64,000 nucleotides of DNA from a virus (taxonomy: Duplodnaviria; Heunggongvirae; Uroviricota; Caudoviricetes). A model generated the notes under the pieces. The model did not search any database and was not told the DNA's origin. It worked only from the letters and a program-made list of their open reading frames with translations. The position numbers and the translations under genes were made by a program. The number at the start of each line of letters is the position of its first letter. The first letter of the stretch is position 1. The stretch lies in IMG/VR virus record IMGVR_UViG_3300013902_000006; one strand, 5' to 3'. This document shows positions 54 through 61,756 of this stretch, in pieces.

Positions 54-1475
54 ATGGCAGAAATTGTAAATACTACAACATTAGGTTATTTAGGAAACGA
101 GTTTCAAATGAAACTGGTAAAGTGTTTCATAGAAGACCAAAGCTTTTTCGCTTCAATAGCAGCGATTGTAGACCAAAATATGTTCTCTGATGAGTCTCTT
201 AGGAAAATTGTGAGGTTTATGAAGGAACGTTATGAGAAAGACGAGAAAGTTGCGACCTATTTCGAGTTGGAAACTATTATCAGGAGTAAAATATCCGATG
301 TCGTCACGGTTGAAATGACTTTGGCGACACTTAACAATATAAAGACCTCCGATTTGGATGGAATGGACTTGATTGAAAATACCTGTGAGAAATTCTTTAA
401 ACAACAGAATCTTACCAAGGCGATAAACCAATCAGTCGAAATAATCAAGAAAGGAAATGCCGACAATTATTACGAGATAGAAGACATTATCAGAAAGGCG
501 TTAGATGTCAATACAAATTTCGATAAGGGCTACAATCCTATGGATGGTATCGAGGATGCCTTAAGCGAGGATTATCGAAACGCAATACCGACAGGTTTTA
601 AACGTCTTGATGATGCTTTATATGGTGGACTTGCCAAAGGTGAATTGGGAGTTATCGTCGCTCCAAGTGGTACTGGAAAAACGAGTGCAACAACAGGTTT
701 TGCGGCATATGCGGCAACATATAAATGTGAGGCTAATAATTACAAGGGTTTCAAGGTACTACACATTCATTTCGAAGATGAGGATAAAAATATCAAGCGT
801 AAGTATTATGGCTTTATGACTGATATTGACGCTTGTATGCTTTCGTTGCCGGATGTTAGACCTAATGTCATTGAGATGCTTTCCACAACCAAGGCAGAAG
901 AAGCAAGAATGATAAAGGAGAATGTCACTTGCTACCATCCTCAAAGTGGAGAAATGTCGGCGAGCGAGATAAAAGCTAAGATTAAACGTATGATAGCGCA
1001 CGGATTTAAGCCCGACTTGGTCGTTATTGACTATTTCGAATGTCTTAAATTGGAAAAACCTGAAACCGCAGCCGATAAGGAATGGACACGTGAGGGTATA
1101 ACGATGAGAAAACTTGAATCGATTGCACACGAATTCGATGTGGCATTATGGGTACCAATTCAGGGTACAAAGGATTCCTTGGGTCAAGAGTACGTAGGGC
1201 TGCAACAAGCGGGAGGTTCAGTGAAAAAAGTACAGATCGGCCACGTCATTATTACTTTCGCAAGGACACCTGATATGACAGAGAAAGGCTTGATGAATAT
1301 ATACCTTCAAAAATTCAGAGGGGGTAGAATGAATGATACAAAGATGATGAATATCAGTTTCAACAATGGTACTTGTCATTTTACCGATAATAACAGTGAT
1401 GAACTTGACGGCATTGATTACCCGACACAACAGTCTGCGGTGGCTCAACAAGTAGCAAATCGATACCGACAATAG
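54..1475 (+). CDS. DnaB/gp41-like replicative helicase (RecA-fold P-loop ATPase)
   Basis: Walker A GELGVIVAPSGTGKTSATTGF aligns with the DnaB H1 motif. DLVVIDYFECL resembles the DnaB H2/Walker B LIVIDYLQL. FRGGRMND...FNNGT resembles the DnaB arginine-finger region. Confidence 0.55.
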   Translation: MAEIVNTTTLGYLGNEFQMKLVKCFIEDQSFFASIAAIVDQNMFSDESLRKIVRFMKERYEKDEKVATYFELETIIRSKISDVVTVEMTLATLNNIKTSDLDGMDLIENTCEKFFKQQNLTKAINQSVEIIKKGNADNYYEIEDIIRKALDVNTNFDKGYNPMDGIEDALSEDYRNAIPTGFKRLDDALYGGLAKGELGVIVAPSGTGKTSATTGFAAYAATYKCEANNYKGFKVLHIHFEDEDKNIKRKYYGFMTDIDACMLSLPDVRPNVIEMLSTTKAEEARMIKENVTCYHPQSGEMSASEIKAKIKRMIAHGFKPDLVVIDYFECLKLEKPETAADKEWTREGITMRKLESIAHEFDVALWVPIQGTKDSLGQEYVGLQQAGGSVKKVQIGHVIITFARTPDMTEKGLMNIYLQKFRGGRMNDTKMMNISFNNGTCHFTDNNSDELDGIDYPTQQSAVAQQVANRYRQ

Positions 1476-1638
1476 GTGACTAAATAGTAGTTTTGACTGA
1501 ATTTCAGTGTAATTTTTCTAATAAAATTTTTCTGTCTGAAACTCAATTATTTAGACACTTTTAGTTAATTTTATAATAATTTTTTATTGATGAAACATAT
1601 AGTTATTCTATACAATTATTTAAATAATCAGTAAAATT

Positions 1639-3966
1639 ATGAAGGTTCAAAAAAGGGACAAAACTTTAGAGTTGTTTAATTTTGATAAGATTTATAATGC
1701 TGTAGATAAGGCGTTTAAGTCTTGTGGAAAGGAAACACCAGAGGGGGTGCTTGAATGTATAAAATATAAATACGATGAAGCATTAGATGTTGTCGTAAAC
1801 ATCGAGGATATACAAGATGATGTCGAGGATTGCCTTATGGAAATCGATAAAGCCGTTGCAAAGGCGTATATCATCTATCGTTACGAACACAAGATGATTA
1901 GAGATAATGACAGCAAGTTATCAAAGGAAATCAAGAAGAAATTGATGGCGACCGACGTACAAAACCAAAACGCTAATTTGGATGAACATTCCTTCGGTGG
2001 TAAGAAAGGCGAGGTTACTGAATATGTGTTTAAGGATTATGCCCTAAGAAATTGTATGTCAAGGAAATCGAGAAACAATCACAATAATAACGAGATTTAT
2101 ATTCACGACCTAGGTTCATATGCCGATGGAGAACACAATTGTCTATCATACCCTATTGATTACTCATATCGAGATGGTACAAAGACAAGACAAGTGGATA
2201 TACGTCCAGCAAACAGTATAAATACAGCATTTCAGTTGCTTGCAGTATATTTCCAGATACAAAGTTTGCAACAATTTGGTGGTGTCTCAGTGACTCATCT
2301 GGATTGGTCGATGGTGCCATATGTGAGGAAATCGTTTTTTAAGCATTTTACGTTCGAATATATTCTTGATTGTGCGAAACACGAAGGTTATGATACGACT
2401 TCAATGAGCAAAGATGAGTGGGATAAATATAAGAAGGAAAAACGTGAGGAATTTAAAAATAAGTACGATATAAAAGATGAAAAATTCACAATAGGTGATT
2501 TCTCAATAAATATTGTCGATTTTCATATTGATGATACTAAGATAAGAGAGATAAACTATGATTGGTACGTAAGGGCATATGATGAGACTAAAAGTGAATT
2601 GGAACAAGCGGTCGAAGGAATGTATCATAATCTTAATTCACTCCAAAGCAGAAGTGGATGTCAACTTCCGTTCAGTTCTATTAACTACGGAACTTGTACA
2701 TTACCTGAGGGACGAATGGTCATAAGAGCATTATTGGAGGGGTCTCTTGACGGAGTCGGTAAATTCCATAAGACACCGATATTCCCTTGTGGAATTTTCC
2801 AATTGATGAATGGTGTTAATAAACACGAAGGTGAGCCTAATTATGATTTATTCAAATTGGCGTTGAAGTCAACAAGTCAAAGGCTGTATCCGAATTATGT
2901 GAATGTAGATTGGAGTAACAATGAGGGGTATGATAAAGATAACCCTATGACATATACCAGCACGATGGGCTGTAGAACTTACAATGGTTTCGACATTAAT
3001 GGCTTCGGTCAATTGAAGGACGGTCGGGGAAATATTTGTCCTGTGACTATCATTTTACCGACATTGGCAATGGAAGCAAAGGAAATGTACAATGAAAAAG
3101 CTAACAAGAATGAATTACAAGAAAATGAAACTGTCGTAACCATCTTTATGAAGTTACTCTCCAAAAAAATAGGAGAGGCAAAGGATATGCTCCTCGAAAG
3201 GTTTGAATGGATTTGCAGTCAGTCTCCTAAATCGGCGAAATTTATGTATGAGAATAATACGATGTTCGGATATAAACCAGAGGAAGGTATAAGGTCTGCA
3301 TTGAAACATGGTACATTAGCCGTGGGTCAACTCGGATTAGCTGAATGCTTGCAAGCGTTGATTGGGACAGATCATACGACAGAAGAAGGAATGAAATTAG
3401 CGATTGAGATTGAAAGTCTGTTTGCCAAGAAGTGCAAGGAATACAAAAAGAAATATAGTTTGAACTTCGGCGTATATCTGACCCCTGCTGAGAATCTTTG
3501 TTATACTGCGATGAAGAAGTTCAAAGCGAAATACGGTGTGATACCTAATGTTTCAGATAGAGAGTATTTTACGAACTCGATGCATGTTCCTGTGTGGAAG
3601 GAGATGACACCGTTCGAAAAAATTGATATTGAGTCTAAATTGACGGGTTTTTCAAATGCGGGCTGCATTACCTATGTGGAGTTACCTTCAACGACTAAGT
3701 ATAATCTCGATGCGCTTGAGACTATTGTACTTTATGCAATGGATAAGGATATTCCTTATTTTGCGGTTAATGTACCGAATGACACGTGTCGCCAATGCGG
3801 GTATAGAGATGAGATAAATGACAAATGCCCTATGTGTGGTTGTAGTGATATAGAAAGATTGAGACGGGTGACCGGATATCTTACTGGCGACTATATGACC
3901 TCATTTAACGTAGGTAAACGATATGAAACTGAAGATAGAGTCAAACACATTAAACGTTTCAGATGA
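1639..3966 (+). CDS. nrdD: Anaerobic ribonucleoside-triphosphate reductase, class III (NrdD)
   Basis: C-terminal Zn-ribbon CRQCGY...CPMCGC followed by the glycyl-radical motif RRVTGYL. Size 775 aa. Immediately followed by the activase with a 4-bp overlap. Confidence 0.85.
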   Translation: MKVQKRDKTLELFNFDKIYNAVDKAFKSCGKETPEGVLECIKYKYDEALDVVVNIEDIQDDVEDCLMEIDKAVAKAYIIYRYEHKMIRDNDSKLSKEIKKKLMATDVQNQNANLDEHSFGGKKGEVTEYVFKDYALRNCMSRKSRNNHNNNEIYIHDLGSYADGEHNCLSYPIDYSYRDGTKTRQVDIRPANSINTAFQLLAVYFQIQSLQQFGGVSVTHLDWSMVPYVRKSFFKHFTFEYILDCAKHEGYDTTSMSKDEWDKYKKEKREEFKNKYDIKDEKFTIGDFSINIVDFHIDDTKIREINYDWYVRAYDETKSELEQAVEGMYHNLNSLQSRSGCQLPFSSINYGTCTLPEGRMVIRALLEGSLDGVGKFHKTPIFPCGIFQLMNGVNKHEGEPNYDLFKLALKSTSQRLYPNYVNVDWSNNEGYDKDNPMTYTSTMGCRTYNGFDINGFGQLKDGRGNICPVTIILPTLAMEAKEMYNEKANKNELQENETVVTIFMKLLSKKIGEAKDMLLERFEWICSQSPKSAKFMYENNTMFGYKPEEGIRSALKHGTLAVGQLGLAECLQALIGTDHTTEEGMKLAIEIESLFAKKCKEYKKKYSLNFGVYLTPAENLCYTAMKKFKAKYGVIPNVSDREYFTNSMHVPVWKEMTPFEKIDIESKLTGFSNAGCITYVELPSTTKYNLDALETIVLYAMDKDIPYFAVNVPNDTCRQCGYRDEINDKCPMCGCSDIERLRRVTGYLTGDYMTSFNVGKRYETEDRVKHIKRFR

Positions 3967-4448
3967 ATTACGAAAGCATAACATATCCTGATGTAAACAA
4001 TGGAATTGGATGTAGGGTCACTTTATGGGTAAGTGGCTGTACCCACCATTGCAATGGATGCCAAAATAGACGGACTTGGGATTTCAATAGTGGTAAACTA
4101 TTTAATAAAGAAGCCAAGGATAAATTAATTGAAATATTAAAATTACCTTACATAAAAGGTTTAACTCTTAGTGGTGGAGACCCTTTATGTTCATATAATG
4201 ACATATTAGACTTGGCTAAGGATATAAAAGATGTATTTCCTGACAAGGATATATGGTTATATACAGGCTTTACTATTGATGTGATTAAGAAAACAATGCC
4301 AGATATATTAATTTTCGTTGATGTGATTGTTGATGGCGAGTTTATTGAGAGTAAAAGGGACATTACCTTGGCTTTCAGAGGGTCGTCTAATCAGAAGATT
4401 TGGATAAAGGATAGTGAAGGTAATTTTGTTCTTTCTAATTTAAATTAA
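3963..4448 (+). CDS. nrdG: Anaerobic RNR activating protein (radical SAM, NrdG)
   Basis: Cys cluster CRVTLWVSGCTHHCNGC at the N-terminus. Small size (161 aa). Translationally coupled to nrdD. Confidence 0.8.
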   Translation: MNYESITYPDVNNGIGCRVTLWVSGCTHHCNGCQNRRTWDFNSGKLFNKEAKDKLIEILKLPYIKGLTLSGGDPLCSYNDILDLAKDIKDVFPDKDIWLYTGFTIDVIKKTMPDILIFVDVIVDGEFIESKRDITLAFRGSSNQKIWIKDSEGNFVLSNLN

Positions 4449-4522
4449 TATGTATTTAATGTGTGGTGGCTTGATTGAAAAATATCAGGTCACTATATTT
4501 ATTTTATAATAGTACATCATAA

Positions 4523-4909
4523 ATGGCTAATTTAAAACGATATGGGATTAAGTTCCCTATTACGATACAATCTGCCGATAACACTTTGATAGATTTGAAT
4601 CAAACCAAGGATGATGAGGTGTATTCCGAGTTGGTGCATCTCATTTTTACACCGAAAGGTCAGAGACTTAGAGACCCTAATTTCGGTACAAGATTGATTC
4701 AATTTATATTTAATCCGAACGACAGTGAGACTTGGGGTGATATTTTAACCGAGATTAAGGAAACAGTCAGTAAATATATACCAAGTTGTTCCATAAAGGA
4801 CTTAACGGTTAACGAAAGTGATAACGGAATAGGATTGAACGTGGAAATGAAGTACACAGTAAAACAAAATGGTACAAATACTGAGTATACAAAATCAATA
4901 AGCATTTAA
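4523..4909 (+). CDS. Baseplate wedge protein, gp25/GPW-like
   Basis: KGQRLRDPNFGTRLIQFIFNPND matches the T4 gp25 core kGsRPFdPeFGcdLsdqlFEn. 128 aa is typical of gp25/GpW. Confidence 0.65.
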   Translation: MANLKRYGIKFPITIQSADNTLIDLNQTKDDEVYSELVHLIFTPKGQRLRDPNFGTRLIQFIFNPNDSETWGDILTEIKETVSKYIPSCSIKDLTVNESDNGIGLNVEMKYTVKQNGTNTEYTKSISI

Positions 4910-4917
4910 TTTGAACA

Positions 4918-6966
4918 ATGTCGGAAAACAAGATACAATATACGAACAGAAATTATGATGATTATCGTAAGAGTCTGATAGAATTAAGTCGAAAGTATTA
5001 TGGGGATGTTTTCGATAGTTTTGGTGATGCAAGCATAGGTCAATGGTTGATAGACGTTTTGTCGGATATTGGCGATAATTTGAATTACCATATTGATAGG
5101 TCATATCAAGAGACGAATATCAATAGTGCGCAGCAAGTAAGTTCGCTACAGGACATGGCGAGGACAAATGGTCTAAGATTACCAGGCAAAAAGAGTGCCT
5201 TGTGTGAGATAGAGATTTCGTGTGTTCTACCAGTATATCAGCAAGGAAACAATGGAAATGGTAATATCGCCCAAGCTGATGAGAATTATTGTCCTTATAT
5301 CAAGAGGGGAACATTGTTCTCGAATGGTTCGACCACCTTTGAATTGATGAATGACATTGATTTCGCCAACCAATTCAACAGTGATGGTTATTCAGACCGT
5401 GAGATTATCCCTAACAAGAATTCGAATGGAGTTATTGTTGGTTATACCTATAAAAAATTGGCTGTTGTAAGTGCAGGACAAAGTAAAATCTATAAAAAGG
5501 TCATAACATCATCAGATATCAAGCCTTTTATGGAGGTGCTGTTGCAAGACAATGATATACTTGGTGTGGAAAGTATCATATTCAAGGAGGGTAGCAATCT
5601 TAATTCTGATCCTACTATTGCTGAATTCTATGTGGATGAAGAGACTTATTACGATAAGTTGAACAAACCTGTACAACGTTATTTCGAGGTTGATAACTTA
5701 TTGGAACAAGAAAGATATGGTTATGAATTGCAAAAGACGGATATAAATGCACCTTTGACGGATGGCGAGAAAACAAACAGAACTTATTATAATCCGATAT
5801 GGGATAAAGAAGGCTTTATCATAGGTGATGAGAATATCGACGTAAGGGAAGTCGTAAGAGGCAAATGGAAACCATTGAAGAACAAATTCATTACCGAGTA
5901 TCAGGATAATTGGTATCTCAAGATAATATTCGGCTCTGGTGTAAGAAACAATTATGGAGAAATACCTTCAGATGCAAAGTCATTCACACAATATATGATG
6001 TCGAGGATGGAAGCGAATGATTGTATGGGGGTATTGCCCGAGACAAATACTACGATGTATGTATTATATAGAGTAGGCGGAGGAGAAATGTCGAATATTG
6101 CAGCAGGAACGTTAAATTCTATCATCTACCTCAATATGGATATTGTTGGGAATTGTGATGACAATAATAATGCAAGGAAAATCAAGAATGTCAGAAACTC
6201 ACTGTCAGTAACAAACACGACTCCTTCATATGGAGGAAAGGATGAACCGTCAACTGCTGAGATGCGTTATATGATAAAATACAATAGTGCGGAACAGAAT
6301 CGATGTGTCACATTGAACGATTATAAATCAAGGATACAGAAAATTCCTGCGATGTATGGTTTACCTTTCAGATTTAGTGTTAATGAGGAGAATAATAAGG
6401 TAGTTATTTATACCCTTGGTCTTGATTATAATGGTAAGTTGACAAGTTTATTGGCTGAAACTGTGGCAAACAATATCAAGACATATCTTACTCATTACAA
6501 GATGCTCAATGACTTTATTGAAATTAAGAGCGGAAAAATAATCAATGTGGCGTTTCGTCTGACAATGTATGTCGATAAGTCATACAGCAAATCAGAGGTG
6601 ACTAAGAGAGTTATCGATATGGTATATGATTATATGGATATTAGAAATCACCAAATGGGTGAGGATATTTTCTTGGGCGACTTGTCAAAGGAAATAGGAA
6701 AACTTGACGGCGTACAGAATCTCGTGTCTATTAAATGTTATAATAAAGTCGGTAACGGAGGCGATGGATATTCGACCGATACAATTAATCAACCTTTGGT
6801 AAGCGTATCGGACTGTTGTAATGATGAATATGCCGAGAGTGACATAAATACTGATAATCAGATTGACTTGGATTCAAGCGATTATACGCTAATAGGGGAT
6901 TCAATGTCAATGTTCGAGATAAGGGATAAGAATCATGATATCGAGGTCATCGTAAAGACAAGATAA
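4918..6966 (+). CDS. Putative baseplate wedge protein (gp6/Baseplate J-like)
   Basis: Large ORF directly after the gp25-like gene with a 9-bp gap, the conserved order in myovirus baseplate modules. No definitive motif, so the call is by synteny and size. Confidence 0.4.
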   Translation: MSENKIQYTNRNYDDYRKSLIELSRKYYGDVFDSFGDASIGQWLIDVLSDIGDNLNYHIDRSYQETNINSAQQVSSLQDMARTNGLRLPGKKSALCEIEISCVLPVYQQGNNGNGNIAQADENYCPYIKRGTLFSNGSTTFELMNDIDFANQFNSDGYSDREIIPNKNSNGVIVGYTYKKLAVVSAGQSKIYKKVITSSDIKPFMEVLLQDNDILGVESIIFKEGSNLNSDPTIAEFYVDEETYYDKLNKPVQRYFEVDNLLEQERYGYELQKTDINAPLTDGEKTNRTYYNPIWDKEGFIIGDENIDVREVVRGKWKPLKNKFITEYQDNWYLKIIFGSGVRNNYGEIPSDAKSFTQYMMSRMEANDCMGVLPETNTTMYVLYRVGGGEMSNIAAGTLNSIIYLNMDIVGNCDDNNNARKIKNVRNSLSVTNTTPSYGGKDEPSTAEMRYMIKYNSAEQNRCVTLNDYKSRIQKIPAMYGLPFRFSVNEENNKVVIYTLGLDYNGKLTSLLAETVANNIKTYLTHYKMLNDFIEIKSGKIINVAFRLTMYVDKSYSKSEVTKRVIDMVYDYMDIRNHQMGEDIFLGDLSKEIGKLDGVQNLVSIKCYNKVGNGGDGYSTDTINQPLVSVSDCCNDEYAESDINTDNQIDLDSSDYTLIGDSMSMFEIRDKNHDIEVIVKTR

Positions 6967-6999
6967 ATTTTCATCATTCACTGATATATGTTGAAAACA

Positions 7000-7036
7000 A
7001 GGTGCTAATGTTCTATTTTTATATAGATAGACATTA
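7000..7036 (+). terminator. Intergenic hairpin (TGCTAATG...CATTAGCA)
   Basis: 8-bp perfect inverted repeat with a ~21-nt AT-rich loop, immediately downstream of the 4918..6966 stop. Confidence 0.35.
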
Positions 7037-7057
7037 GCATTTTTATTTTATAGAATA

Positions 7058-7315
7058 ATGGGATGTAATTGTGGAAAGAAGAATTTAAGCAATATATCTA
7101 AATATACCGATGATGGTAAAGATTTTAACGAGGATAATGGCATTATAGTCAAGGCAACACAATTTTTAATACAGTTGATGTTCGGCATTTTGATAGCGAT
7201 AATATTTATCGTTATGGCAGTCCCTATGATACTATATGTGGTGTTTTGTCTTATTTTTAATCTCACACCATCTCTTAGGTTAAGGGATTTTAGAAAACTA
7301 TTCAATAAAGGATAA
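7058..7315 (+). CDS. Small membrane protein (about 35 contiguous hydrophobic residues, 1-2 TM)
   Basis: QFLIQLMFGILIAIIFIVMAVPMILYVVFCLIFNL hydrophobic core with a charged C-terminus. Confidence 0.4.
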   Translation: MGCNCGKKNLSNISKYTDDGKDFNEDNGIIVKATQFLIQLMFGILIAIIFIVMAVPMILYVVFCLIFNLTPSLRLRDFRKLFNKG

Positions 7316-7322
7316 TGATATA

Positions 7323-8234
7323 TTGTTGATGAGAAGACTGACAACTGAGGAATTTATAAATAAAGCCAAAGACATACATAATGATAAGTATAATTATACT
7401 AATACTGTGTATGTAAATGCTGTGACTAAAGTTTCTATTATATGCCCTACACACGGGGTTTTTTATCAGTTACCAAGCAGTCATTTACAAGGGCATGGAT
7501 GCCCATATTGCGGAGGTTCCAGTATTAAAACTACTGAACAATTTATACAAGAGGCAACGAATAAATGGGGTGACACTTACGATTATAGTAAAACAACATA
7601 TCGTAATGCTTTGACTAAAGTATGTATTATTTGTCCCGAGCATGGAGAATTTTGGCAACCTCCAAGCAGTCATTTACAAGGGCATGGATGCCCAAAGTGT
7701 CATTTTTTAAAGAACGGATTGAGACATCGTTCGAATACAGATGAATTTATTATAAAAGCCAAGAAGGTACACGGGAATAAGTATGATTATTCTAAAGTAA
7801 ACTATGTAAAGGTGAAGGAAAAAGTATGTATTATTTGTCCTGTACATGGGGAATTTTATCAGACACCTTGTCATCATCTTATTGGTAATGGTTGTCCAAA
7901 GTGTAATTATAGTAAAATGGAAAGTATAGTTGAAAATGCATTACTCTTTAATAATGTGCAGTTTGAATCTCAAAAGAAATTCAAATGGTTGGGAAAACAG
8001 AGTTTGGATTTTTATTTACCAAAATATAATATTGCAATAGAATGTCAAGGTGAACAACATTATAAACCTATAAAATATATCGGTGGCGATAATAAATTAA
8101 GTGTGATACAGGAAAGAGATAAAAGAAAATTAAAATTATGCAATCAAAACGATATTGATATCTTTTATATTAAATATACAGACGACTGTAATGAGGCAAT
8201 TAATAGAATATTAGAAAATATTGATACATTATAA
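7323..8234 (+). CDS. Homing-endonuclease-like protein: three tandem ~65-aa Cys/His repeats plus a C-terminal DUF559/Vsr-like PD-(D/E)xK domain
   Basis: The repeat KYDYSK..Y....KV.IICP.HG.F.Q.PSSHLQGHGCP.C occurs three times. A DNA-level repeat ccaagcagtcatttacaagggcatggatgccca occurs twice. The C-terminus LDFYLPKYNIAIECQGEQHY matches the DUF559/Vsr endonuclease motif (DF..., IEvDG..H). Confidence 0.5.
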   Translation: MLMRRLTTEEFINKAKDIHNDKYNYTNTVYVNAVTKVSIICPTHGVFYQLPSSHLQGHGCPYCGGSSIKTTEQFIQEATNKWGDTYDYSKTTYRNALTKVCIICPEHGEFWQPPSSHLQGHGCPKCHFLKNGLRHRSNTDEFIIKAKKVHGNKYDYSKVNYVKVKEKVCIICPVHGEFYQTPCHHLIGNGCPKCNYSKMESIVENALLFNNVQFESQKKFKWLGKQSLDFYLPKYNIAIECQGEQHYKPIKYIGGDNKLSVIQERDKRKLKLCNQNDIDIFYIKYTDDCNEAINRILENIDTL

Positions 8235-8236
8235 GT

Positions 8237-11200
8237 ATGAACAACGATTTGAGAACATACAGGATAAGAACAAAGGTCGGTGAGGATAAACCTACTGTGT
8301 TAAAAGTACCTTTAAAACAGACATATGATACTTTTGAGATACTTTCGTTAAAATTAGACCAAAGTAACTCTTATAAGTATTATACATCTGATTACGGTGT
8401 CATTGTCGGTCGTGTCCTTGCTAATGGAGGTGTAGGTATTCCGAACGCAAAGGTATCAATATTCATCGAGAGTGACGAGACAACCGCTGATATCAAAAAA
8501 TATATTTTATATCATTATTCATCAGTACAATCTACTGATAATGATGGTGTAAGATATAATTTATTGCCAGACGAAATAGATGAAGCCTGTCATCAGAATG
8601 TTGGTACATTCCCTAACAAGAGATTAGTCCTTGATAACAAGGATGTAATGGAAATCTTCGATAAATATTGGAAGTATACCACAGTTACAAATGAGGCTGG
8701 TGATTATATGTTGTTCGGCATTCCCACAGGCTCTCAACAATTGCATGTAGATATTGACTTGAGTGATATTGGTATATGGTCACAAAGACCAAGAGACCTT
8801 ATATATAAGGGATTTAATATCAACCAGTTTGATAGTCCGAACAAATTCAAGACAGACACCAATTTAAATTCGCTGTCTCAGATTTATTCACAGGATAGAG
8901 GGTTATATGTGTATCCTTATTGGGGAGAGACAACCGAGAACGGTGATACCATTGGTATTACCCGTTGTGATATACAAATTGATTATAAATTTGAACCTAC
9001 CTGTATCTTTATGGGTTCTATCGTAACTGATAAAGGTAATAACGCAATAGGTAAGAATTGTACTGGCACTGATTTAGTGGGAAAGATGTCTGACTTGTCA
9101 ACTGGTGAGGGTTCTATTGAAATGATAAGGAAGACCCTCGACAATAAAGTCGAGCAAGTGCAGATAAAAGGTAATCGTGTAATCGATGGTGATGGAGTAT
9201 GGTGTTACCAGATACCGATGAATCTCGATTATGTGATGACCGATGAGTTTGGTAATTTAGTACCAAGTGATAATCCTGATAGGGGTATACCTACTCGTAC
9301 AAGGGTGCGTTTCAGAATTTCATTGGATGAGCAACCTAACGATGGCTCTGCGAGAAAACGTTGCAAATATCTTGTTCCTAATAACCCTCATATCAACGAC
9401 GATGGGTTTAAAGAGAATCTTGACGCTGACTATGAATTTGGTTCGGCAACAAGAGAGGAGAGTTATTGTGATATGTTTTGGAATAAAGTATATACAGTTA
9501 AAAACTATATTCCAAGACTACAAAAAAATAGTAAGGTAACAAACCGTAAACATACAGGTATAAAGTTAATAAACCATTACGGCGATAATAACCCTATGCC
9601 TTATAATGGCTTGAGCATTAAATTAACCTTCACATTCAGATTGATTTGTGTGTTAACCAAGGCGTTTATTACCTTAATCGAATTTTTGAATATCGTTATC
9701 AGTTTATTGGGTACACTACCTTGTTGGATTGGTAGTTTGAAACTGCCTCTCATCGGTCGCCCTTTTAAATTCTTATTGAAATTAATACCGAGCTGTATTA
9801 AGCTATCGTCGGAATTTTGCGATGATGGAATAAATCCTAATGTCTATTATCCAGGATGCACAGGCTGTGTATGGAATAAAAAAACAAGAAAAGATTGCCA
9901 AGATTATCAATCAAAGCAGCCAAAGGAAGAACAATTGAGATGCCTTAATTCAACCGCACAGCTATATACTTGTGTCGAGAATGAGCTGGCACAAAGCAAT
10001 GATGCGACATCGTTCAATTTTTACAATGATTGGATTAATGGTTCGCTTTATGCACCTCTGTGGTATCGTAAGATTACACCTAAAAAGTCATTCTTATTCG
10101 GTTTGTTTAAACGTAAGGCAAAGGATGAGTGGTGTTCTGCCGATAGGGAGTTCGGAAGCTTCAGATTAATGCAAGCATGTGCTGTTGCACGTCCTGCGTC
10201 AAAAATGACATATGCCAATTTCGATGGTAAAGCAACGACTATGAGAATCGTCGATGGGAACCAATGTGGTAATAAGTGCCACGAGACAGTAAAGAATCAA
10301 GATGTTACCAATGGTGTAATATCCCCTAAGTTGACAATGTTAGGACAAACTGTTTATTATTATCGTGCCGTTGAATATGATCCAACAGCAACCCAAGAGA
10401 GCAACACTGATGTCAAAGGTGCCATTAAGACGTTATTTGCGACTGATATTGTATTATTGGGCAGTTTGAACAATTGTGATTCACAAGGAATACCACAATT
10501 CTTCAAAGAATTGGATTCAAGCACCTATAACTTACCAACTGATATTCTTTTTACTGATAATGAAATCGTTAACAGTTTCGATGACAATGGAAATCTTGTC
10601 GATGTAAAATATACTTCAAACACTGAAATGACAGGATGTGACTGGGGCAATAAGAATGAGTTCGGTAAAGATGACGGAGGCTTATTTTATGGAATCGGTT
10701 GCTCGACTATTGAGATGCAAACCAAGTCTTGCGTTAATTTAAGCCGTATCTGCGAGTTTGGTGTCTCTCTCGATGAAAGTAAATATGTACCTAACTTGAA
10801 GAATCTTAGTGGCGATGAAAACGCTTACGATTTGTTAATTGCCGATGGTTTTGTGTCTCACGATGAACTATATAATTTGGATGGCCGTTCTATGTTTGCA
10901 ACAATGAATGGCAACAGACTTAAGACTAAACTTAACACAACTAATGGTCTGAGAGAATATGATTTCAGATATTTGTATCCCGAGAGTTTCGATGGCTCAC
11001 TTGAAAAGATAATGCGTGACAAAACAGGACGGTATGGAAACGATGTAAATTACAAGAACAACTATAACCTTGAATCTGCCAGTCGTGATTATTATATATT
11101 CAGAATGGGTAACAATCCTTATTATTATGACAAGGAGTATCGTTTCCCTCGTTATGAAAATTCATTCTATTTTTATTTCGGACTAAAAAACGGAAAGACC

Positions 11201-14200
11201 GCAATTGAGAAATTCAACAGTCAGTTCTTTAGTGAGTGCGAGACTGTTAATGGGCAGGAAGCATCTATTGGCATAAAGGTAAACCCTAACTCCTGGTGCT
11301 CGAATGACGATGAGAAGAATAGGGATGGTTATGTCGCTTTGGATGTAAGTGGAATCGCCACGCCTTATGACATTATCATAAATTCAACAACGAATTTGTC
11401 TTATTCTGTCTCTGCTAATGACATAACATCAGATAAGATAATAATCAAGGGTGACAAGGCTTCTGCTGAAGAGATAAAGAAACTAACCGATAAAGGTTAT
11501 GTCGTGTTTGATGATATAAAGAATCTCGAAAACAGTGAATATCAATTGACAATTACTGACGCAGATGGTGAGATTACGACATCTACATTTAGGATGATTG
11601 CTTCTTATCTAACATATAAGACTTATGTTGATAAATTCAGACAGCCTAATAATGTCTTACAGTCGGAATACGCTAATATGGCGGCTATTGCTAACGACAA
11701 GAAAGGTTTGGCGAAAGATTTTGCCCAAGTTATCGAAGGCAGTGTGGATAGTCGTGAGATAGGCGGTGTAATAGTCGTATATGATGTATATTTCAATAAT
11801 GATATATTGAAGGATTACAAAGTAGAGATTAAACCTTTGGCTTCTGATTTTACGAATGATGGAAGTTACACGCCTGTCGTTTACAGTAGTAATGGTACTG
11901 TCTCTGGTAATGGTTTCTTGGGCAAAGTCGGTGATTATTTAGTATTTGGTCTCCCTAAGGGCGATGTCAGATATTCTGTAACCGTGACACAACTATGTAA
12001 TGGTATCGACAGCAAGAATAGTGTCGAGAAAACATTATTGGTTGAACAGCCGACCCCTTATAAATTGTATATAAATGATGTCGATTATGACGTAATAAAG
12101 GACGGTTTCGATTGTGGGTGGACTATTAGCGGTAAGACAGATAATATCAAGTTAAAACGAGGTAATTCTGTAAAGGGATGGTTGACTAACTTAGACAACG
12201 TTGATGATTTCATAGTGGACGACAATGGTCTCTTTAAATGGGAGAACAACGATACATATAAGTTGGAATACTATATCGATGATATGGACGATTATAGACT
12301 TAATCCCGACAAATATGCCGATAACATTGAAGAAATGAAGGAAGCACGTCGTCAATTTATCAAGTCGTTTAAAGAAACCTTTTATCTAAGTTGTCCTTCC
12401 GATTCATTGTCGTTAAACGTTTCAGTAAAGACTGATGACTATCCTTATTCGACGGCGATAATATATCGTCCAGAAATGGTATCAGAAGAAGAGGAATATA
12501 ATACGTTTGACGGTTGTGATAGTCGATTATTAACGACGGACAATCAGATTGATGATGTGAAAATACCAACGTTAACCAACTTTGATAACACACGATATGG
12601 AGGTGGTGATAAACTGACTGATGCGAAGATTAAGGACGCTGTATTCGCAAGGGATATAAACAGTAGTTGCAATAAGGAAGCAATTTATAAGCATCCTTAT
12701 TTTGTTGCGGCGGTCAATTCAAAAGGAAAAACCCTTCCGATGACGAATGTCGGTGTAAGTAAAGAGGACAATTCATATAAATTGAATGGAAATATTGCAG
12801 GATATTTTGGTTTCCATATAATTGATAAGATGTTGGTTAATAACATTATCAGTTGGGCATACATTACAGATATACCGTATTTTAAACCTTCATGGCAAGG
12901 TTTTAATGGCAAGAGTGTTGTTGCAAAAGAAGGTCTATTTGCAGGTATCTTGTATAACGGCTCACCTACGTCTGTGGATGTGAATGGCAATACGTTGTTC
13001 GAGTCACAGACATTGGCAGGTGTCACGTTTAATATAACGACAGTCTCTGATGGAACGTCAATGGCGACTAAACGTGTTATCACAGGACCAAATTTATTAA
13101 AGACTTATAAAGGCTATAAGGTCGATGATAAGACCGATGCCTATGTTACCTTACCTCCTGTATCGACAAGAATGAACATCGAGGACAGTAACGGTTGTCA
13201 AATTGATGAGACAATTTTCGGTGGAATGAGAATAACCGCAGGAGGAAGTTCGGTTAATAATCTTATCACTGGTGAAAGGATACTGAAGATAAATTTATCG
13301 AATGCTGACAGTTCGGGCGATACATATTACTATATATATTCAACCGAAGGAGGATTGAACTATCCTATAAACTCAATTGATGGAAATAACTTCATCACAA
13401 TGTATGATGACAGTGAATGGAAAGACGACAATAACGCATATCGTTTGTTTAACTATAAGACTACCAAGACAGTTTTACAGAATCTTGTCGACGAAGGTGT
13501 GAAATCGACGGTTCCGAATACCGAAGATGCATCGCAGACGACAGAATCGCATGGTTATGGGACAACGGGTAGTTTTACCAATATAGGAAAAGGTAAATCT
13601 TATTATGTCGTTGCTGTGACAGAAAATAACTGTAGGGCAATTTCACCAGTGTTTGACTTTGTAAACTTGGAAGGTGTCGTAGAAGTATCGAAGATATATT
13701 CAAAGATAGAGGATGGTACTGAGGAAATTGAGACTGAAGTTCCTGTGGTAGATGAAGAAGGTAAACCAGTACTTAACGAGGACGGCACACAGAAGACTGA
13801 AAAAGTAAAGTCTACTGTTACCAAATACAAAGATATTGAGGATAATATGATTGGCTTCTATATAGATGGACTCAATGTAGATTCAAATAACCCATATTAT
13901 TTCAATAAGTATCGTTATTCCTTGGAGGCAACTTGTGAAATAGATAGCCTTCATAAGGTTACGGCAAGTGGTGATTTGAGTGGAGGTACAAATAGTCCAA
14001 TATATGCGATTACTGACAGTAGTACTTTTGACTTGCTTAATGAGTATACATCTTTACCCCTTAAACTTGGTAATAAATTAATAAAAAAGAAAACAACCTT
14101 CACTGCGGTCGATTATACGAATTTGACTCACATATTCTCAGCAGGAAAAATAGTGAAGAAAGACCGATACCGTATATTATTGTCATTGAACGATCAAGAA

Positions 14201-14737
14201 GGTAAAGGTACATATCATTTTAATGAACAAAATCCCGACGATAGTGACTATACTGATAGGACATTGTATCTTGAGAAAGATGATAAGTATGAATTGCCTT
14301 ATGTATATGATGATGACGGTGCGAAGATAATGTTCTGGACAACTTTAAAAGAAACCAAATGGAACAGTAAGAAGCAAGAAGGTGAAATAAGAATTACACC
14401 TATAGGTAAGGCTACTGTAACTGAAAGTATGATATGGTATGCAGTATGGCGTACGACGGAGTATGTCACATTTACCTGTGATAGTACAAACGGAGGTAAA
14501 TGGAGCGATGATACCACCGATGATTCATTGTCAGAAATTACAGCTTTAGGCAAGGTTACTTGTGAGAAAGGAAATCCTGTTAATAACGACAAGAATGTTA
14601 AGTTCGGCGGTTGGCAGTGTGATGACACGACTGTCATTATCCAAGAAGATGGAACGGTTGTGACTGATCATGCCTGCACCGTTTATCCAAAATGGACAAA
14701 GTCATATACCGTCCGATGGATGGATAAAGACATATAA
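8237..14737 (+). CDS. Giant virion structural protein (2166 aa) with an N-terminal carboxypeptidase-regulatory-like beta-sandwich; putative baseplate hub or fibre protein
   Basis: Uninterrupted 6.5-kb ORF. N-terminus GVIVGRVLANGGVGIPNAKVSIFIE is CarbopepD_reg-like. Asn/Asp/Tyr/Thr-rich. Sits inside the baseplate/tail block. Confidence 0.55.
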   Translation: MNNDLRTYRIRTKVGEDKPTVLKVPLKQTYDTFEILSLKLDQSNSYKYYTSDYGVIVGRVLANGGVGIPNAKVSIFIESDETTADIKKYILYHYSSVQSTDNDGVRYNLLPDEIDEACHQNVGTFPNKRLVLDNKDVMEIFDKYWKYTTVTNEAGDYMLFGIPTGSQQLHVDIDLSDIGIWSQRPRDLIYKGFNINQFDSPNKFKTDTNLNSLSQIYSQDRGLYVYPYWGETTENGDTIGITRCDIQIDYKFEPTCIFMGSIVTDKGNNAIGKNCTGTDLVGKMSDLSTGEGSIEMIRKTLDNKVEQVQIKGNRVIDGDGVWCYQIPMNLDYVMTDEFGNLVPSDNPDRGIPTRTRVRFRISLDEQPNDGSARKRCKYLVPNNPHINDDGFKENLDADYEFGSATREESYCDMFWNKVYTVKNYIPRLQKNSKVTNRKHTGIKLINHYGDNNPMPYNGLSIKLTFTFRLICVLTKAFITLIEFLNIVISLLGTLPCWIGSLKLPLIGRPFKFLLKLIPSCIKLSSEFCDDGINPNVYYPGCTGCVWNKKTRKDCQDYQSKQPKEEQLRCLNSTAQLYTCVENELAQSNDATSFNFYNDWINGSLYAPLWYRKITPKKSFLFGLFKRKAKDEWCSADREFGSFRLMQACAVARPASKMTYANFDGKATTMRIVDGNQCGNKCHETVKNQDVTNGVISPKLTMLGQTVYYYRAVEYDPTATQESNTDVKGAIKTLFATDIVLLGSLNNCDSQGIPQFFKELDSSTYNLPTDILFTDNEIVNSFDDNGNLVDVKYTSNTEMTGCDWGNKNEFGKDDGGLFYGIGCSTIEMQTKSCVNLSRICEFGVSLDESKYVPNLKNLSGDENAYDLLIADGFVSHDELYNLDGRSMFATMNGNRLKTKLNTTNGLREYDFRYLYPESFDGSLEKIMRDKTGRYGNDVNYKNNYNLESASRDYYIFRMGNNPYYYDKEYRFPRYENSFYFYFGLKNGKTAIEKFNSQFFSECETVNGQEASIGIKVNPNSWCSNDDEKNRDGYVALDVSGIATPYDIIINSTTNLSYSVSANDITSDKIIIKGDKASAEEIKKLTDKGYVVFDDIKNLENSEYQLTITDADGEITTSTFRMIASYLTYKTYVDKFRQPNNVLQSEYANMAAIANDKKGLAKDFAQVIEGSVDSREIGGVIVVYDVYFNNDILKDYKVEIKPLASDFTNDGSYTPVVYSSNGTVSGNGFLGKVGDYLVFGLPKGDVRYSVTVTQLCNGIDSKNSVEKTLLVEQPTPYKLYINDVDYDVIKDGFDCGWTISGKTDNIKLKRGNSVKGWLTNLDNVDDFIVDDNGLFKWENNDTYKLEYYIDDMDDYRLNPDKYADNIEEMKEARRQFIKSFKETFYLSCPSDSLSLNVSVKTDDYPYSTAIIYRPEMVSEEEEYNTFDGCDSRLLTTDNQIDDVKIPTLTNFDNTRYGGGDKLTDAKIKDAVFARDINSSCNKEAIYKHPYFVAAVNSKGKTLPMTNVGVSKEDNSYKLNGNIAGYFGFHIIDKMLVNNIISWAYITDIPYFKPSWQGFNGKSVVAKEGLFAGILYNGSPTSVDVNGNTLFESQTLAGVTFNITTVSDGTSMATKRVITGPNLLKTYKGYKVDDKTDAYVTLPPVSTRMNIEDSNGCQIDETIFGGMRITAGGSSVNNLITGERILKINLSNADSSGDTYYYIYSTEGGLNYPINSIDGNNFITMYDDSEWKDDNNAYRLFNYKTTKTVLQNLVDEGVKSTVPNTEDASQTTESHGYGTTGSFTNIGKGKSYYVVAVTENNCRAISPVFDFVNLEGVVEVSKIYSKIEDGTEEIETEVPVVDEEGKPVLNEDGTQKTEKVKSTVTKYKDIEDNMIGFYIDGLNVDSNNPYYFNKYRYSLEATCEIDSLHKVTASGDLSGGTNSPIYAITDSSTFDLLNEYTSLPLKLGNKLIKKKTTFTAVDYTNLTHIFSAGKIVKKDRYRILLSLNDQEGKGTYHFNEQNPDDSDYTDRTLYLEKDDKYELPYVYDDDGAKIMFWTTLKETKWNSKKQEGEIRITPIGKATVTESMIWYAVWRTTEYVTFTCDSTNGGKWSDDTTDDSLSEITALGKVTCEKGNPVNNDKNVKFGGWQCDDTTVIIQEDGTVVTDHACTVYPKWTKSYTVRWMDKDI

Positions 14738-38881: not shown

Positions 38882-38954
38882 GTTTGATTCGCCCAGTTGG
38901 TAGGGCATTATTTTATGGTAATAACTGTCATCGGTTCGAGTCCGATATTAAACT
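38882..38954 (+). tRNA. tRNA with anticodon loop TTATGGT (apparent anticodon ATG, formally His)
   Basis: Acceptor GTTTGAT/ATTAAAC (one G-U), D-arm GCCC-AGTTGGTA-GGGC, anticodon stem TTATT/AATAA, T-arm ATCGG-TTCGAGT-CCGAT, 73 nt. A34 in the anticodon is unusual. Confidence 0.5.
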
Positions 38955-58988: not shown

Positions 58989-59012
58989 TTTGTTAAAAAT
59001 AATTAGAGAATA

Positions 59013-59523
59013 TTGTTTTACAATGTGACGAAAGAAAAATTTATTGAAAAAAGCAACAAGATACATAATAATAAATATGACTATTCAAAAGTAGACTATA
59101 TAAATGCCAATACAAAAGTCTGTATTATTTGTCCGGAGCATGGTGAATTTTGGATGACTCCTACCGCACATATGTATCAAAGACAAAATTGTCCTGATTG
59201 TGCTAAAAAAGAAACCGCCATAAAACGCACTAAGAATACTGATTGGTTTATACGAACAAGCATTTAAAGTACATGGTAATAAGTACGATTACTCGAAAGC
59301 TGTATATCAGAATACAGAAGCCAAGGTTTGCATCATTTGTCCTGAGCACGGCGAATTTTGGCAAACCCCTCATAATCATCTATGTACTACGAAACCACAA
59401 GGTTGTCCTAAATGTGGAAAGGAACAGTATATTATTAAAAATACTAAAATTGAAAATGATTTTATAAATGAATGCATTAAAAGGATAAACATCATGTTAA
59501 TTTTAATTAAACCATTACATTAG
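59013..59523 (+). pseudogene. Frameshifted, truncated paralog of the 7323..8234 repeat endonuclease-like gene
   Basis: Repeat 1 (KYDYSKVDYINANTKVCIICPEHGEFWMTP..CPDC) is in frame 2 and ends at 59267. Repeat 2 (KVHGNKYDYSKAVYQNTEAKVCIICPEHGEFWQTP..GCPKCG) continues in frame 0 up to the TAG at 59521. A single extra C in tttata-c-gaacaagca near 59256 restores FIEQAFKVHGNKYDY. No C-terminal nuclease domain. Confidence 0.6.
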
Positions 59524-59591: not shown

Positions 59592-60353
59592 GTGAGTTTA
59601 TTCATTACAAATGAAGAGTTTGTCAAAAGTAAGATAAAACTTAAAAAATACAATCAAGAATGGAAAAAATATTCGGCAAGGAAATATGTCGGTGATTGTT
59701 CTTATTTATTCGAGAAACTGAAACCATCATCATATAAGGATTTCTACGAAAAATACATTAATGATGGAAAGAAAACAAGTGGAAGTATCAATATTGATGA
59801 TTACCATCGTGGACGAACGGAATGGGAAATAATAGATAATGCGAAATATTTGTATGATACTATCTGTAAGAGATATCCCGACGATAATGTAAATTTCGTT
59901 GACTGTCTGAATGTCACAGTAGGTCATACAATACACGAAACATATGATGGACACATTGTCGAAAACATCGTGGATGAAATGTTTAATAAAAAAGGTCTTA
60001 AAACAATTAAACCTTGTGGCGATGCTGATACGTTGTATGGTATTGACCGTTTTTGTTACATAGACGGCAAGTTGCAATTTACATTACAGATAAAACCCAT
60101 ATCATTTTTCTTGGGAAATTCAAATAGAAGTCTGATAGAAGATAGAATATCAGCTTTCAACAAAGGTAGGAAGGCTCAAGAGGTTTTTAATGTTAAGATG
60201 TATTACATAATATACGACGGTTCTGTAAGTAGCGAGAACAATGTTGGTTTTGTTTGCAAGCCTAATAACAAGATGGCATTTGAGCTATCTGAGTTATGCA
60301 ATTGTGATGGAACTGTTAAGATATTACCGAAAAATCGTTGTTTTAACAATTAA
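59592..60353 (+). CDS. Hypothetical protein
   Basis: 253-aa ORF. Confidence 0.45.
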   Translation: MSLFITNEEFVKSKIKLKKYNQEWKKYSARKYVGDCSYLFEKLKPSSYKDFYEKYINDGKKTSGSINIDDYHRGRTEWEIIDNAKYLYDTICKRYPDDNVNFVDCLNVTVGHTIHETYDGHIVENIVDEMFNKKGLKTIKPCGDADTLYGIDRFCYIDGKLQFTLQIKPISFFLGNSNRSLIEDRISAFNKGRKAQEVFNVKMYYIIYDGSVSSENNVGFVCKPNNKMAFELSELCNCDGTVKILPKNRCFNN

Positions 60354-60427: not shown

Positions 60428-60652
60428 ATGCAAGAAATCTATATTCTTATAAAAAGTGAAGGAATCTATGATTCACAGACGAGTTTTCCTGTTGCTGCAT
60501 TTATGAACCGAGAAGCTGCCGAGAAGGAGTGCAAACGTTTGAATGACGAAATGGATGATTTGCAAAGTCTATTTCCGATGCAAGCTGGGGCGCGTTCGTC
60601 ACAATGTTGGAATACAAAGCTAAGTGGTATGGAAAGACCCTATCCAAGATAG
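60428..60652 (+). CDS. Small hypothetical ORF whose 3' end runs into the TnpB remnant
   Basis: 74-aa ORF with a canonical promoter. Possibly a chimeric reading frame created by the IS insertion or deletion. Confidence 0.3.
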   Translation: MQEIYILIKSEGIYDSQTSFPVAAFMNREAAEKECKRLNDEMDDLQSLFPMQAGARSSQCWNTKLSGMERPYPR

Positions 60653-60915
60653 GAAGGTTCTATCCATCCTCAAAAACTTGCCATTATTGCGGCTATGTCA
60701 AGGAAGACTTGACTTTGTCTGACCGTTACTACACTTGCCCTAATTGTGGCAAGCTGATAGACAGAGACTTGAATGCAGCAAAGAACATCCTTGAGGAAGG
60801 AATAAGAAACATATCGGCAGGAACTGTCGATTACACCGATGGAGGGGGCGTAAGACTTGCTCGCAAGCATTCCCCGATGAAGTCGGAATCCCACAAGTCT
60901 TTAGCTTGTGGGTAG
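60559..60915 (+). mobile_element. tnpB: IS200/IS605-family TnpB (OrfB) C-terminal fragment with the element right-end hairpin; decayed IS
   Basis: In-frame translation ISDASWGAFVTMLEYKAKWYGKTLSKIGRFYPSSKTCHYCG...YTCPNCGKLIDRDLNAAKNILEEG matches the TnpB RuvC-II/Zn-finger/RuvC-III end (DASWGEF..LEYKA.W.G, SSKTCS.CG, DRDVNAAINI). The hairpin CCCACAAG-TCTTTAG-CTTGTGGG at 60890..60912 overlaps the stop, as expected for IS605 right-end/omega-RNA scaffolds. About 280 N-terminal aa are missing. Confidence 0.6.
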
Positions 60916-60985: not shown

Positions 60986-61756
60986 ATGAGATACTGTGGT
61001 AGTAAAAGAAAATTCATGAAGGAACTTCTTCCTATTCTAATGGAAGGGACGAATGAAAATACTTTGTTTGTGGACGTTTTCGGTGGAGGAATGAACGTAG
61101 TGTCCGAAATTCCTCTTGAGAAGAAAATTGCGAATGATAACAATCTGTATGTAGTAAGTCTTTGGAAATCTTTACAAAGTCATAAATTAAAAGGGACATT
61201 GCTTCCTCGACTGATAAATGACCATGTTACAGAAGAGGAGTATAGTGATGTAAAACGTAGTTTTCTCGATAAATCGGCCAAGTATTCATATGCCGAGATT
61301 GGTTATGTCGGTGCTGCTTTGTCATACGGAGGTGCATTTTTCAATGGTTATGCAAAGTTCAATCCAAAGAAAAATGAAGACCACGTAAAAGAGGCGTACA
61401 ACGGACTGATGAAACAATTGGAAGGGTTCAAAAACCTTGACACGACTGAATTTGTCTGCGAAGACTATCGTAATTTGAAGTTTAATAATGAGGGCGACGC
61501 ATTTAATGTAGTTCTATTTTGTGATCCTCCGTATTTTGCCACCCGTAAGTATTTGAGTGACTTTGATACTGAATTATTTTGGGGTTGGGTGAGAGAACAA
61601 TCGATTAGAGGCTATAAGGTATATGTCTGTGAATATGATGCACCATCCGATTTCAAATGCGTATGGAGCAAAAAGAAGAAAGATGGAATGGGCACGACAA
61701 AAACCGGACGTAAGCAGAGTACTAAAGTCGAGAAAATGTTTGTATACAATGGTTAA
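60986..61756 (+). CDS. Second Dam/D12-class DNA N6-adenine methyltransferase
   Basis: MRYCGSKRKFMKELLPIL, FVDVFGGGMNV (FxGxG) and LFCDPPYFATRKY (DPPY). Confidence 0.75.
   Translation: MRYCGSKRKFMKELLPILMEGTNENTLFVDVFGGGMNVVSEIPLEKKIANDNNLYVVSLWKSLQSHKLKGTLLPRLINDHVTEEEYSDVKRSFLDKSAKYSYAEIGYVGAALSYGGAFFNGYAKFNPKKNEDHVKEAYNGLMKQLEGFKNLDTTEFVCEDYRNLKFNNEGDAFNVVLFCDPPYFATRKYLSDFDTELFWGWVREQSIRGYKVYVCEYDAPSDFKCVWSKKKKDGMGTTKTGRKQSTKVEKMFVYNG

Follow-up and report, generated by a model that had tools for sequence, protein, structure and literature searches.

What is the gene that sits directly in front of a very large gene in this phage genome, and how did it come to be there? The window, i.e. the entire stretch of 64,000 nt that was analyzed, contains at this place an open reading frame (ORF) on the + strand that begins at 7323 (TTG) or 7329 (ATG), ends at 8234, and encodes 303 or 301 aa; the ATG at 7329, which gives a 301-aa product, is the more likely start. 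Three tandem Cys/His units of ~60 aa are followed in this ORF by a C-terminal nuclease domain of ~109 aa, and the ORF is matched by PHROG 559, 681, and 9084 (E = 3e-74 to 1e-22), whose labels read endonuclease or homing endonuclease. As we argue below, it is very probably a free-standing homing endonuclease gene (HEG), combining a CapR-like zinc-finger array with an EDxHD/Vsr-like nuclease, that forms a selfish insert of ~908 bp (7329-8236) between a leader and the start of the large gene. The features on which this reading is built are the following, with residues given in the 303-aa numbering.

7058..7315, + strand: resident gene of 85 aa upstream of the insert
7316..7332, + strand: left junction; the leader GATATATTGTTG precedes the ATG of the HEG; phages without the HEG have the large gene's ATG immediately after this leader
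7329..8234, + strand: very probable HEG, intact, mobile insert (ORF, PHROG matches, absence from the related contigs L003, L004, and L005)
7335..7514, + strand: predicted zinc-finger unit 1, CHCC (C41, H44, C60, C63); unit HMM, E = 7e-29
7473..7505, + strand: 33-nt tract in unit 1, encoding PSSHLQGHGCP; exact match to 7662-7694
7527..7703, + strand: predicted zinc-finger unit 2, CHCC (C104, H107, C123, C126); unit HMM, E = 4e-31
7662..7694, + strand: 33-nt tract in unit 2; exact match to 7473-7505
7728..7907, + strand: predicted zinc-finger unit 3, CHCC (C172, H175, C191, C194); unit HMM, E = 3e-29; the unit that was modelled
7905..8231, + strand: C-terminal Vsr-like/EDxHD-type nuclease domain with predicted active site E200, D229, E240, Q242, H246, D266, and K269 (alignment, AF2, Foldseek, profile)
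8232..8240, + strand: right junction; stop codon TAA of the HEG, 2 nt, ATG of the 2166-aa gene
8237..14737, + strand: resident gene of 2166 aa directly downstream (ORF)
59013..59523, + strand: decayed family member with two units and the stub of a third, no nuclease domain

A preliminary description of this DNA had reported a triplicated Cys/His unit, and three copies are indeed recovered both with the unit HMM and at the DNA level, where a 129-nt repeat occurs three times with spacings of 189 and 204 nt. In the six-frame translation of the window, the unit HMM has a single match outside these units, at 59007-59520. The pattern C-x2-H-G ... G-C-x2-C is present in all three units, and C-x2-H...C-x2-C is also found in the aligned homologous units, which had been chosen for carrying it. 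Pfam DUF4379 ("probable treble clef zinc finger") matches three stretches of the protein (E = 1e-7, 32.4 bits vs. a cut-off of 24.5), DUF723 falls just below its threshold (E = 6e-4, 20.1 bits vs. 20.9), and the Pfam CapR model has no match in the protein at E ≤ 1. Judging by these motifs and family matches, the units belong to the CHCC zinc fingers of the DUF4379, DUF723, and CapR type. An AF2 model of unit 3, built on an alignment of 61 units and not including zinc, has a pLDDT of 90 and displays, in order, an N-terminal helix, a β-hairpin with C-x2-H at its turn, a short helix, and a last helix that begins with C-x2-C. With one hairpin knuckle and one helix N terminus, the modelled unit looks treble-clef-like, not like the zinc ribbon originally proposed, and this agrees with the Pfam DUF4379 match. 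No match was returned when the unit model was compared with solved structures. A structural Ig-like repeat was ruled out by the Cys/His zinc modules and by the catalytic residues present in the remainder of the protein.

These catalytic residues lie in the C-terminal 109 aa, which contain the motif LDFYLPKYNIAIECQGEQHY. As assessed in an alignment of 26 sequences (the window domain and 25 homologues), domain residues D35, E46, G49, Q51, H52, and D72 are invariant, and E6 and K75 nearly so. In order along the domain, E6, D35, E46, G49, Q51, H52, D72, and K75 correspond to E200, D229, E240, G243, Q245, H246, D266, and K269 in the 303-aa numbering. The E-D-x-H-D set is complete (E200, D229, Q242 at the "x" position, H246, and D266), and the alignment of the C-terminal domain shows the PD-(D/E)xK-type catalytic residues that the preliminary description had anticipated. 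An AF2 model of the domain (pLDDT 91.4) was compared with the PDB using Foldseek. The top matches were 1vsr and 1cw0, which are Vsr without and with DNA, respectively (E = 6e-4, TM 0.71-0.76, probability 1.00), followed by 3r3p, the catalytic domain of I-Bth0305I (E = 1.4e-3, TM 0.66 by query and 0.73 by target, probability 1.00), after which the matches dropped sharply. A search of PDB sequences with the domain profile gave weak but coherent matches to the Vsr-like cleavage domain of AbaSI (E = 0.006), the DUF559 protein 3HRL, and T7 endonuclease I, and retrieved neither Vsr nor I-Bth0305I at E ≤ 10. The D, E, G, and Q-H residues are aligned in the AbaSI and 3HRL matches; in the latter, lDFY...IEcqGeQH is paired with VDFM...VEADGGQH. 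When the domain was aligned to Vsr with hhalign, the residues fell in the expected register at a score that was not significant (E = 0.04, probability 1%). The putative kinship to Vsr and I-Bth0305I thus rests on predicted structure and motif register. Both the Foldseek matches (1vsr, 1cw0, and 3r3p) and the profile matches (AbaSI and 3hrl) bear out the earlier view of an endonuclease-like gene with a Vsr/DUF559-type domain of the PD-(D/E)xK superfamily, and the modelling predicts a Vsr-fold nuclease domain with intact catalytic residues. Because sequence homology to Vsr and I-Bth0305I is not detectable, the domain is best placed in the Vsr-like clade as an outgroup or a sister family, with a motif nearer to DUF559, and not as core EDxHD.

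Other labels that might be attached to the protein were considered. The designation HNH endonuclease, carried by PHROG 559 and by some GenBank homologues, is treated as a misannotation: the predicted fold is that of Vsr, and the search for an HNH/His-Me finger motif found no HNH family in a Pfam scan of the protein at E ≤ 1. A Pfam Thioredoxin_3 match (residues 186-218, 26.9 bits vs. a cut-off of 24.8) was regarded as spurious because it runs across the CPKC knuckle into the nuclease domain. An NCBIfam scan returned a single thioredoxin-like match, which was below threshold, and a direct search of PDB sequences with the whole protein yielded nothing beyond chance matches to haemoglobin.

The architecture has close counterparts in the literature. 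A 2025 study (PMC12350094) describes it as a large "distantly related outgroup" of EDxHD/Vsr homing endonucleases, with thousands of mostly unannotated relatives. The four proteins reported there, which we liken to ours by their description, carry three to five ~60-aa domains related to CapR/DUF4379/DUF723 and a C-terminal EDxHD/Vsr-related nuclease of ~100 aa; they are intron-encoded, whereas the gene in the window is free-standing and intergenic. In 2023, Barth et al. (PMC10448857) described phage homing endonucleases that bind DNA through repeated CapR/DUF723 fingers, in which recombination between finger repeats generates duplications and deletions. The homing endonucleases of that study share with the window protein repeated zinc-finger modules in variable number, as does CapR, but their catalytic domain is T5orf172 (GIY-YIG-related), and here it is Vsr-like. 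I-Bth0305I (3R3P), the prototype of the EDxHD homing endonucleases, also appears similar, being phage-borne and combining an N-terminal DNA-binding region with a C-terminal catalytic domain of the Vsr fold. Taylor et al. (PMC3239194) defined its EDxHD residues as E170, D196, N208, H213, and D222, equivalent to E25, D51, H64, H69, and D97 of Vsr, and E200, D229, Q242, H246, and D266 are their counterparts in the window protein, with similar spacing. Unlike the window protein, I-Bth0305I binds DNA through two NUMOD/helix-turn-helix motifs and not through zinc fingers, its gene lies within a group I intron of recA, and HMMER finds no sequence similarity between the two. The histidine motif of the window protein, E-x-Q-G-x-Q-H, is nearer to the DUF559 form E-x-D-G-x-Q-H than to that of I-Bth0305I. 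E. coli Vsr, DUF559 proteins (3HRL), and AbaSI/PvuRts1I have this fold and its central acidic and histidine residues in common with the window protein. Vsr, however, consists of one domain, acts as a mismatch nickase, and possesses a zinc site of its own as well as intercalating tryptophans (PMC3239194); in AbaSI the domain is coupled to an SRA-like module that reads modified cytosine; and an array of CHCC fingers is found in none of these proteins.

The family is very large. A word-index search with the protein found at least 8000 homologues at E ≤ 0.001, and five to seven units dominate among the best 120 of these. The nuclease-domain profile matched 51,034 cluster representatives (clustering at 50% identity) with E ≤ 0.001, of which 25,756 reach E ≤ 1e-10. 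In nearly all of them the domain is C-terminal, behind zero to nine zinc units of several subtypes, and lengths of 300-330 aa, like that of the window protein, are frequent. Using tblastn, matches were found at 2448 places in 1072 deposited phage genomes, with up to 18 per genome; the hosts of these phages include Vibrio, Staphylococcus, Klebsiella, and Salmonella, and Lak megaphages are also represented. Homologues are annotated as "hypothetical protein", "HNH endonuclease", "nuclease", or "homing endonuclease", and one source names a homologue "very-short-patch-repair endonuclease". The suggestion of an under-described family has to be withdrawn, given the 2025 description of the architecture, the 2023 description of the fingers, and the GenBank homologues already named homing endonuclease: the gene belongs to a very large family that is already described. 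Its members occur in more than a thousand sequenced phages and often bear the wrong label "HNH endonuclease" or "hypothetical", and we found no biochemical study of any of them in the literature.

Evidence that the gene is mobile comes from its surroundings. Upstream are genes for DnaB, NrdD, and NrdG, a gp25-like gene (4523..4909), and a Baseplate_J-like/wedge gene (4918..6966). Of the position between baseplate genes that was proposed at the outset, one half is borne out: the gp25-like and Baseplate_J-like genes lie upstream, and the 2166-aa gene downstream has no Pfam or PHROG match. The carrier appears as a large gut-type phage, with the insert preceding the large gene after the baseplate wedge genes. 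Relatives were found by searching IMG/VR with the baseplate protein. Two of them, L003 and L004, are near-identical contigs of 277-279 kb in which this protein is 96% identical and the DNA about 82%; L005 is more distant (60%). Window positions 4500-7332 and 8237-10500 align to positions 5582-8406 and 8403-10681 of the L003/L004 locus at 81-83% identity, with ~904 nt missing, and the BLAST breakpoints fall at window positions 7332 and 8237. As seen in the junction alignment, what directly follows the leader (...AAAGGATAAGATATATTGTTG) is the endonuclease gene's ATG in the window, and the large gene's ATG in L003 and in L005, which is empty too. The sequence ATGA is common to both junctions, which makes the boundary of the insert ambiguous by 4 nt. 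The endonuclease-less alleles of the flanking genes that the preliminary description had suggested looking for thus exist in L003, L004, and L005, as a precise absence, in keeping with a homing-endonuclease-like position. Because related phages with ~82% identical flanks lack exactly this segment, the gene is an insertion with presence/absence polymorphism, and it explains a difference in gene content between related large phages. The 85-aa gene lies outside the mobile unit, since the HEG-less relatives have it.

The intron search detected neither a group I nor a group II element, tRNAs being the only Rfam matches in the window, and the ORF sits between complete genes; the gene is therefore free-standing. 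The 5′ end of the 2166-aa gene is 86-90% identical to the HEG-less allele, and this region is the likeliest candidate for the homing site. Occupied and empty alleles were compared by sliding identity, in search of co-conversion or of a target site that had diverged; the profile was flat at 80-90%, revealed no co-conversion tract, and was uninformative. Exact-pattern scans of IMG/VR recovered the empty junction in the two contigs already known and nowhere else, and did not recover the occupied junction. A megablast search with a 4-kb stretch around the gene against deposited phages gave no match, and these phages thus include no close isolate. The gene is somewhat AT-richer than its neighbours (GC 31% vs. 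36-37%), and scans for promoters, terminators, and composition gave nothing decisive.

These observations suggest the following sequence of events. The protein would be made during infection, as the gene is co-oriented with the structural genes, presumably from the leader that first served the downstream gene, 2 nt before whose ATG the HEG ends. The three CHCC modules may bind an extended DNA site, by analogy with CapR and the T5orf172 homing endonucleases, and the C-terminal Vsr-fold domain would cut DNA with Mg2+ through E200, D229, Q242, H246, and D266. The nuclease probably acts as a dimer, producing a double-strand break as I-Bth0305I does. During a mixed infection with a relative lacking the gene, a cut would be made near the empty site, which is consistent with the clean presence/absence pattern, and recombinational repair from the occupied genome would copy the gene and neighbouring markers across. 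The pair of occupied and empty alleles offers a concrete substrate for a first cleavage or homing assay in this large family. For the window itself little is at stake, as a typical selfish endonuclease gene is accompanied by a decayed relative.

In the lineage to which the window belongs, the gene is fixed: a full-length 301-aa gene was found in 24/24 of the contigs read that carry an identical 85-aa neighbour. A near-identical empty allele was not found in this lineage, and this counts against the homing reading inasmuch as no recent movement is evident. Variants of the gene in this near-clonal population comprise five non-synonymous changes (A13V, V162A, C189R, V210M, and I291V) vs. one synonymous; C189R, which alters a zinc ligand, occurs in one low-coverage contig. 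The flanks (2 kb) show zero to four differences per contig. This pattern hints at relaxed constraint after fixation, with numbers too small for a test.

The second locus, at 59013..59523, had been regarded as a frameshifted paralog with two repeats. Unit A lies in an 84-aa ORF (59013..59267) that is interrupted by a 1-nt frameshift near 59253, and unit B lies in the +1 frame (~59242..59523) and has no start codon of its own; after it come the first part of a third unit and a stop at 59523. The frameshift is real and not an assembly error, because an identical truncated ORF with the same 84-aa product is present on at least 24 contigs from independent samples. A recent duplication is contradicted by the divergence of the locus: its units are 50 and 59% identical to unit 3 of the window gene, and the best database relatives of the conceptually repaired protein are at most 61% identical, with no close intact relative. 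The earlier description was thus right about a real and frameshifted copy, which is an old family member that was acquired separately and has since decayed. A search for empty or intact alleles using the neighbouring genes turned up one distant, non-syntenic phage and nothing else. On the homing reading, this copy is the older of the two and has reached the stage of the cycle at which such elements decay.

Could the fixed and intact gene serve the phage instead of itself? Homing-endonuclease-derived proteins are used for competition in the ICP1/PLE system, where Odn targets the replication origin of the satellite (PMC10448857), and a domesticated nuclease of this sort would cut co-infecting phages, satellites, or host DNA, its own spread being a side effect. 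The full-length state of the gene in all the lineage contigs read and its intact catalytic residues would fit such a role. However, the gene has been inserted cleanly where two genes meet in an arrangement that is otherwise conserved, the mostly non-synonymous variants in the lineage give no sign of strong selection for function, and there is no known satellite or target. We consider this role unlikely as the main explanation, although competition and homing are not mutually exclusive.

The same study shows that zinc fingers of this kind can be turned to repression, CapR being a satellite repressor derived from homing endonucleases. A sequence-specific DNA-binding regulator, with an inactive or incidental nuclease domain and with the 84-aa ORF as a second regulator, is for the window gene very improbable, even though this truncated ORF is conserved exactly. 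Such conservation is expected in a near-clonal population in which the flanks show zero to three differences per kb, and the gene at 7329..8234 keeps all the EDxHD-equivalent residues and is missing in close relatives, which speaks against a regulator with a core function. A mismatch-repair nickase of the Vsr type, or a housekeeping nuclease of the DUF559 type, would accord with Vsr as the best structural match and with the name "very-short-patch-repair endonuclease" given to one homologue. The sequence similarity to Vsr is not significant, though, and a finger array, a variable number of units, many copies per genome, and presence/absence polymorphism are traits of mobile endonucleases; this explanation can be set aside with near certainty. 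A free-standing HEG, with its insert placed between leader and large gene, accordingly remains the reading that we favor by far.

The finger array of this putative HEG has a history of its own. The preliminary description had inferred a recent expansion from a 33-nt stretch identical between units. This identity is confirmed for units 1 and 2, and 0/100 shuffles gave such a match. The age drawn from it is not tenable, because the identity is a local patch in units that are otherwise diverged: pairwise, the three units are 57-62% identical in protein and 63-69% in DNA. Units from other proteins reach 67-76% identity to those of the window, and for unit 3, 70% of the foreign units show a higher identity than its own sister units do. 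Outside the tract, units 1 and 2 are 61% identical and use the same codon for 11/23 identical amino acids, vs. 11/11 inside; a run of 33 matches at the background identity has a chance of ~5e-6. The tract stems from local gene conversion or recombination between repeats that are themselves old, and the recombination between repeats reported for the T5orf172 enzymes (PMC10448857) fits it. Positional orthology was sought between the three units of the window and those of longer homologues, and no consistent mapping was obtained.

One tentative and rather doubtful idea is that the CHCC modules read DNA modularly, with one short subsite per unit, that hypervariable positions set the specificity, and that segment swaps or conversions re-target the enzyme. 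If so, the 33-nt patch would be a captured re-targeting event, or the sign of a repeated subsite in the target, and the family would offer a natural, compact, and programmable DNA-recognition scaffold joined to a nuclease. As assessed in 560 units, the hypervariable positions are 30-31, 47, 49-50, 53, and 55, interleaved with invariant residues. The 33-nt patch encodes unit positions 48-58, so that units 1 and 2 are equal at four hypervariable positions (S49, S50, Q53, and H55).

Both PHROG 559, the best-matching PHROG family for the endonuclease gene, and some GenBank homologues (e.g. NC_019401.1 207161..208048) carry the label "HNH endonuclease". This label is a propagating misannotation, as the product of the endonuclease gene has a Vsr-like catalytic domain and lacks any detectable HNH motif. 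Within the near-clonal population to which the window belongs, variants of the endonuclease gene are mostly non-synonymous (five, with one synonymous), and the 2-kb flanks are almost invariant. In one population variant (L020, an ENA contig locus, 4272..5177), which comes from a contig of ENA ERZ808254 with a coverage of about 4.6x, one of the zinc ligands of unit 3 is altered (C189R in the numbering of the 301-aa protein).

The gene that follows (window 8237..14737, + strand), directly downstream of the baseplate wedge genes, encodes a 2166-aa protein with zero matches in Pfam and PHROG. It is kept in the related 277-kb phages lacking the endonuclease gene, with ∼81% DNA identity. The final bases of the endonuclease gene before the downstream ATG, TGATACATTATAAGT (window 8213..8236), are similar to the original leader, TGATATATTGTTG (7310..7328), which directly precedes the ATG of the 2166-aa gene in phages without the insert. 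As judged from this likeness, the insert may contain a second copy of the leader, which would maintain translation of the downstream gene, or the resemblance may have arisen by chance, the DNA being AT-rich. No obvious Shine-Dalgarno sequence is present at the junction examined.

The genes directly upstream of the baseplate genes are as follows.

54..4448, + strand: genes for a DnaB-like helicase and the anaerobic ribonucleotide reductase (NrdD, NrdG)

Taken together, these genes, a GC content of 34%, and the lack of an obvious Shine-Dalgarno sequence at that junction suggest that the host may be anaerobic, possibly of Bacteroidota type.

The decayed endonuclease gene (59013..59523), a frameshifted second locus, is adjoined by an MjaI-like restriction endonuclease homologue, with two further features nearby.

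59592..60353, + strand: restriction endonuclease homologue, MjaI-like (match to Pfam RE_MjaI at E = 1e-5)
60604..60915, + strand: 103-aa ORF, TnpB/Cas12f-like C-terminal part (Pfam Cas12f1-like TNB domain, E = 9e-23)
60986..61756, + strand: gene annotated in related contigs as a D12-class N6-adenine methyltransferase

On the basis of these assignments, the MjaI-like homologue and the putative methyltransferase may form a phage-borne restriction-modification-like pair. With the N-terminal RuvC parts missing, the 103-aa ORF appears to be what is left of an IS200/IS605-type element within the phage genome.

The window also contains a small tRNA cluster, in which tRNA-His(ATG) lies alongside tRNA-Ser(GCT) and tRNA-Met(CAT). 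The coordinates of the third tRNA disagree between Rfam (37931-38010) and ARAGORN (38026-38114).

38882..38954, + strand: tRNA-His, anticodon ATG (ARAGORN)

The A at position 34 of this tRNA is unusual for tRNA-His.
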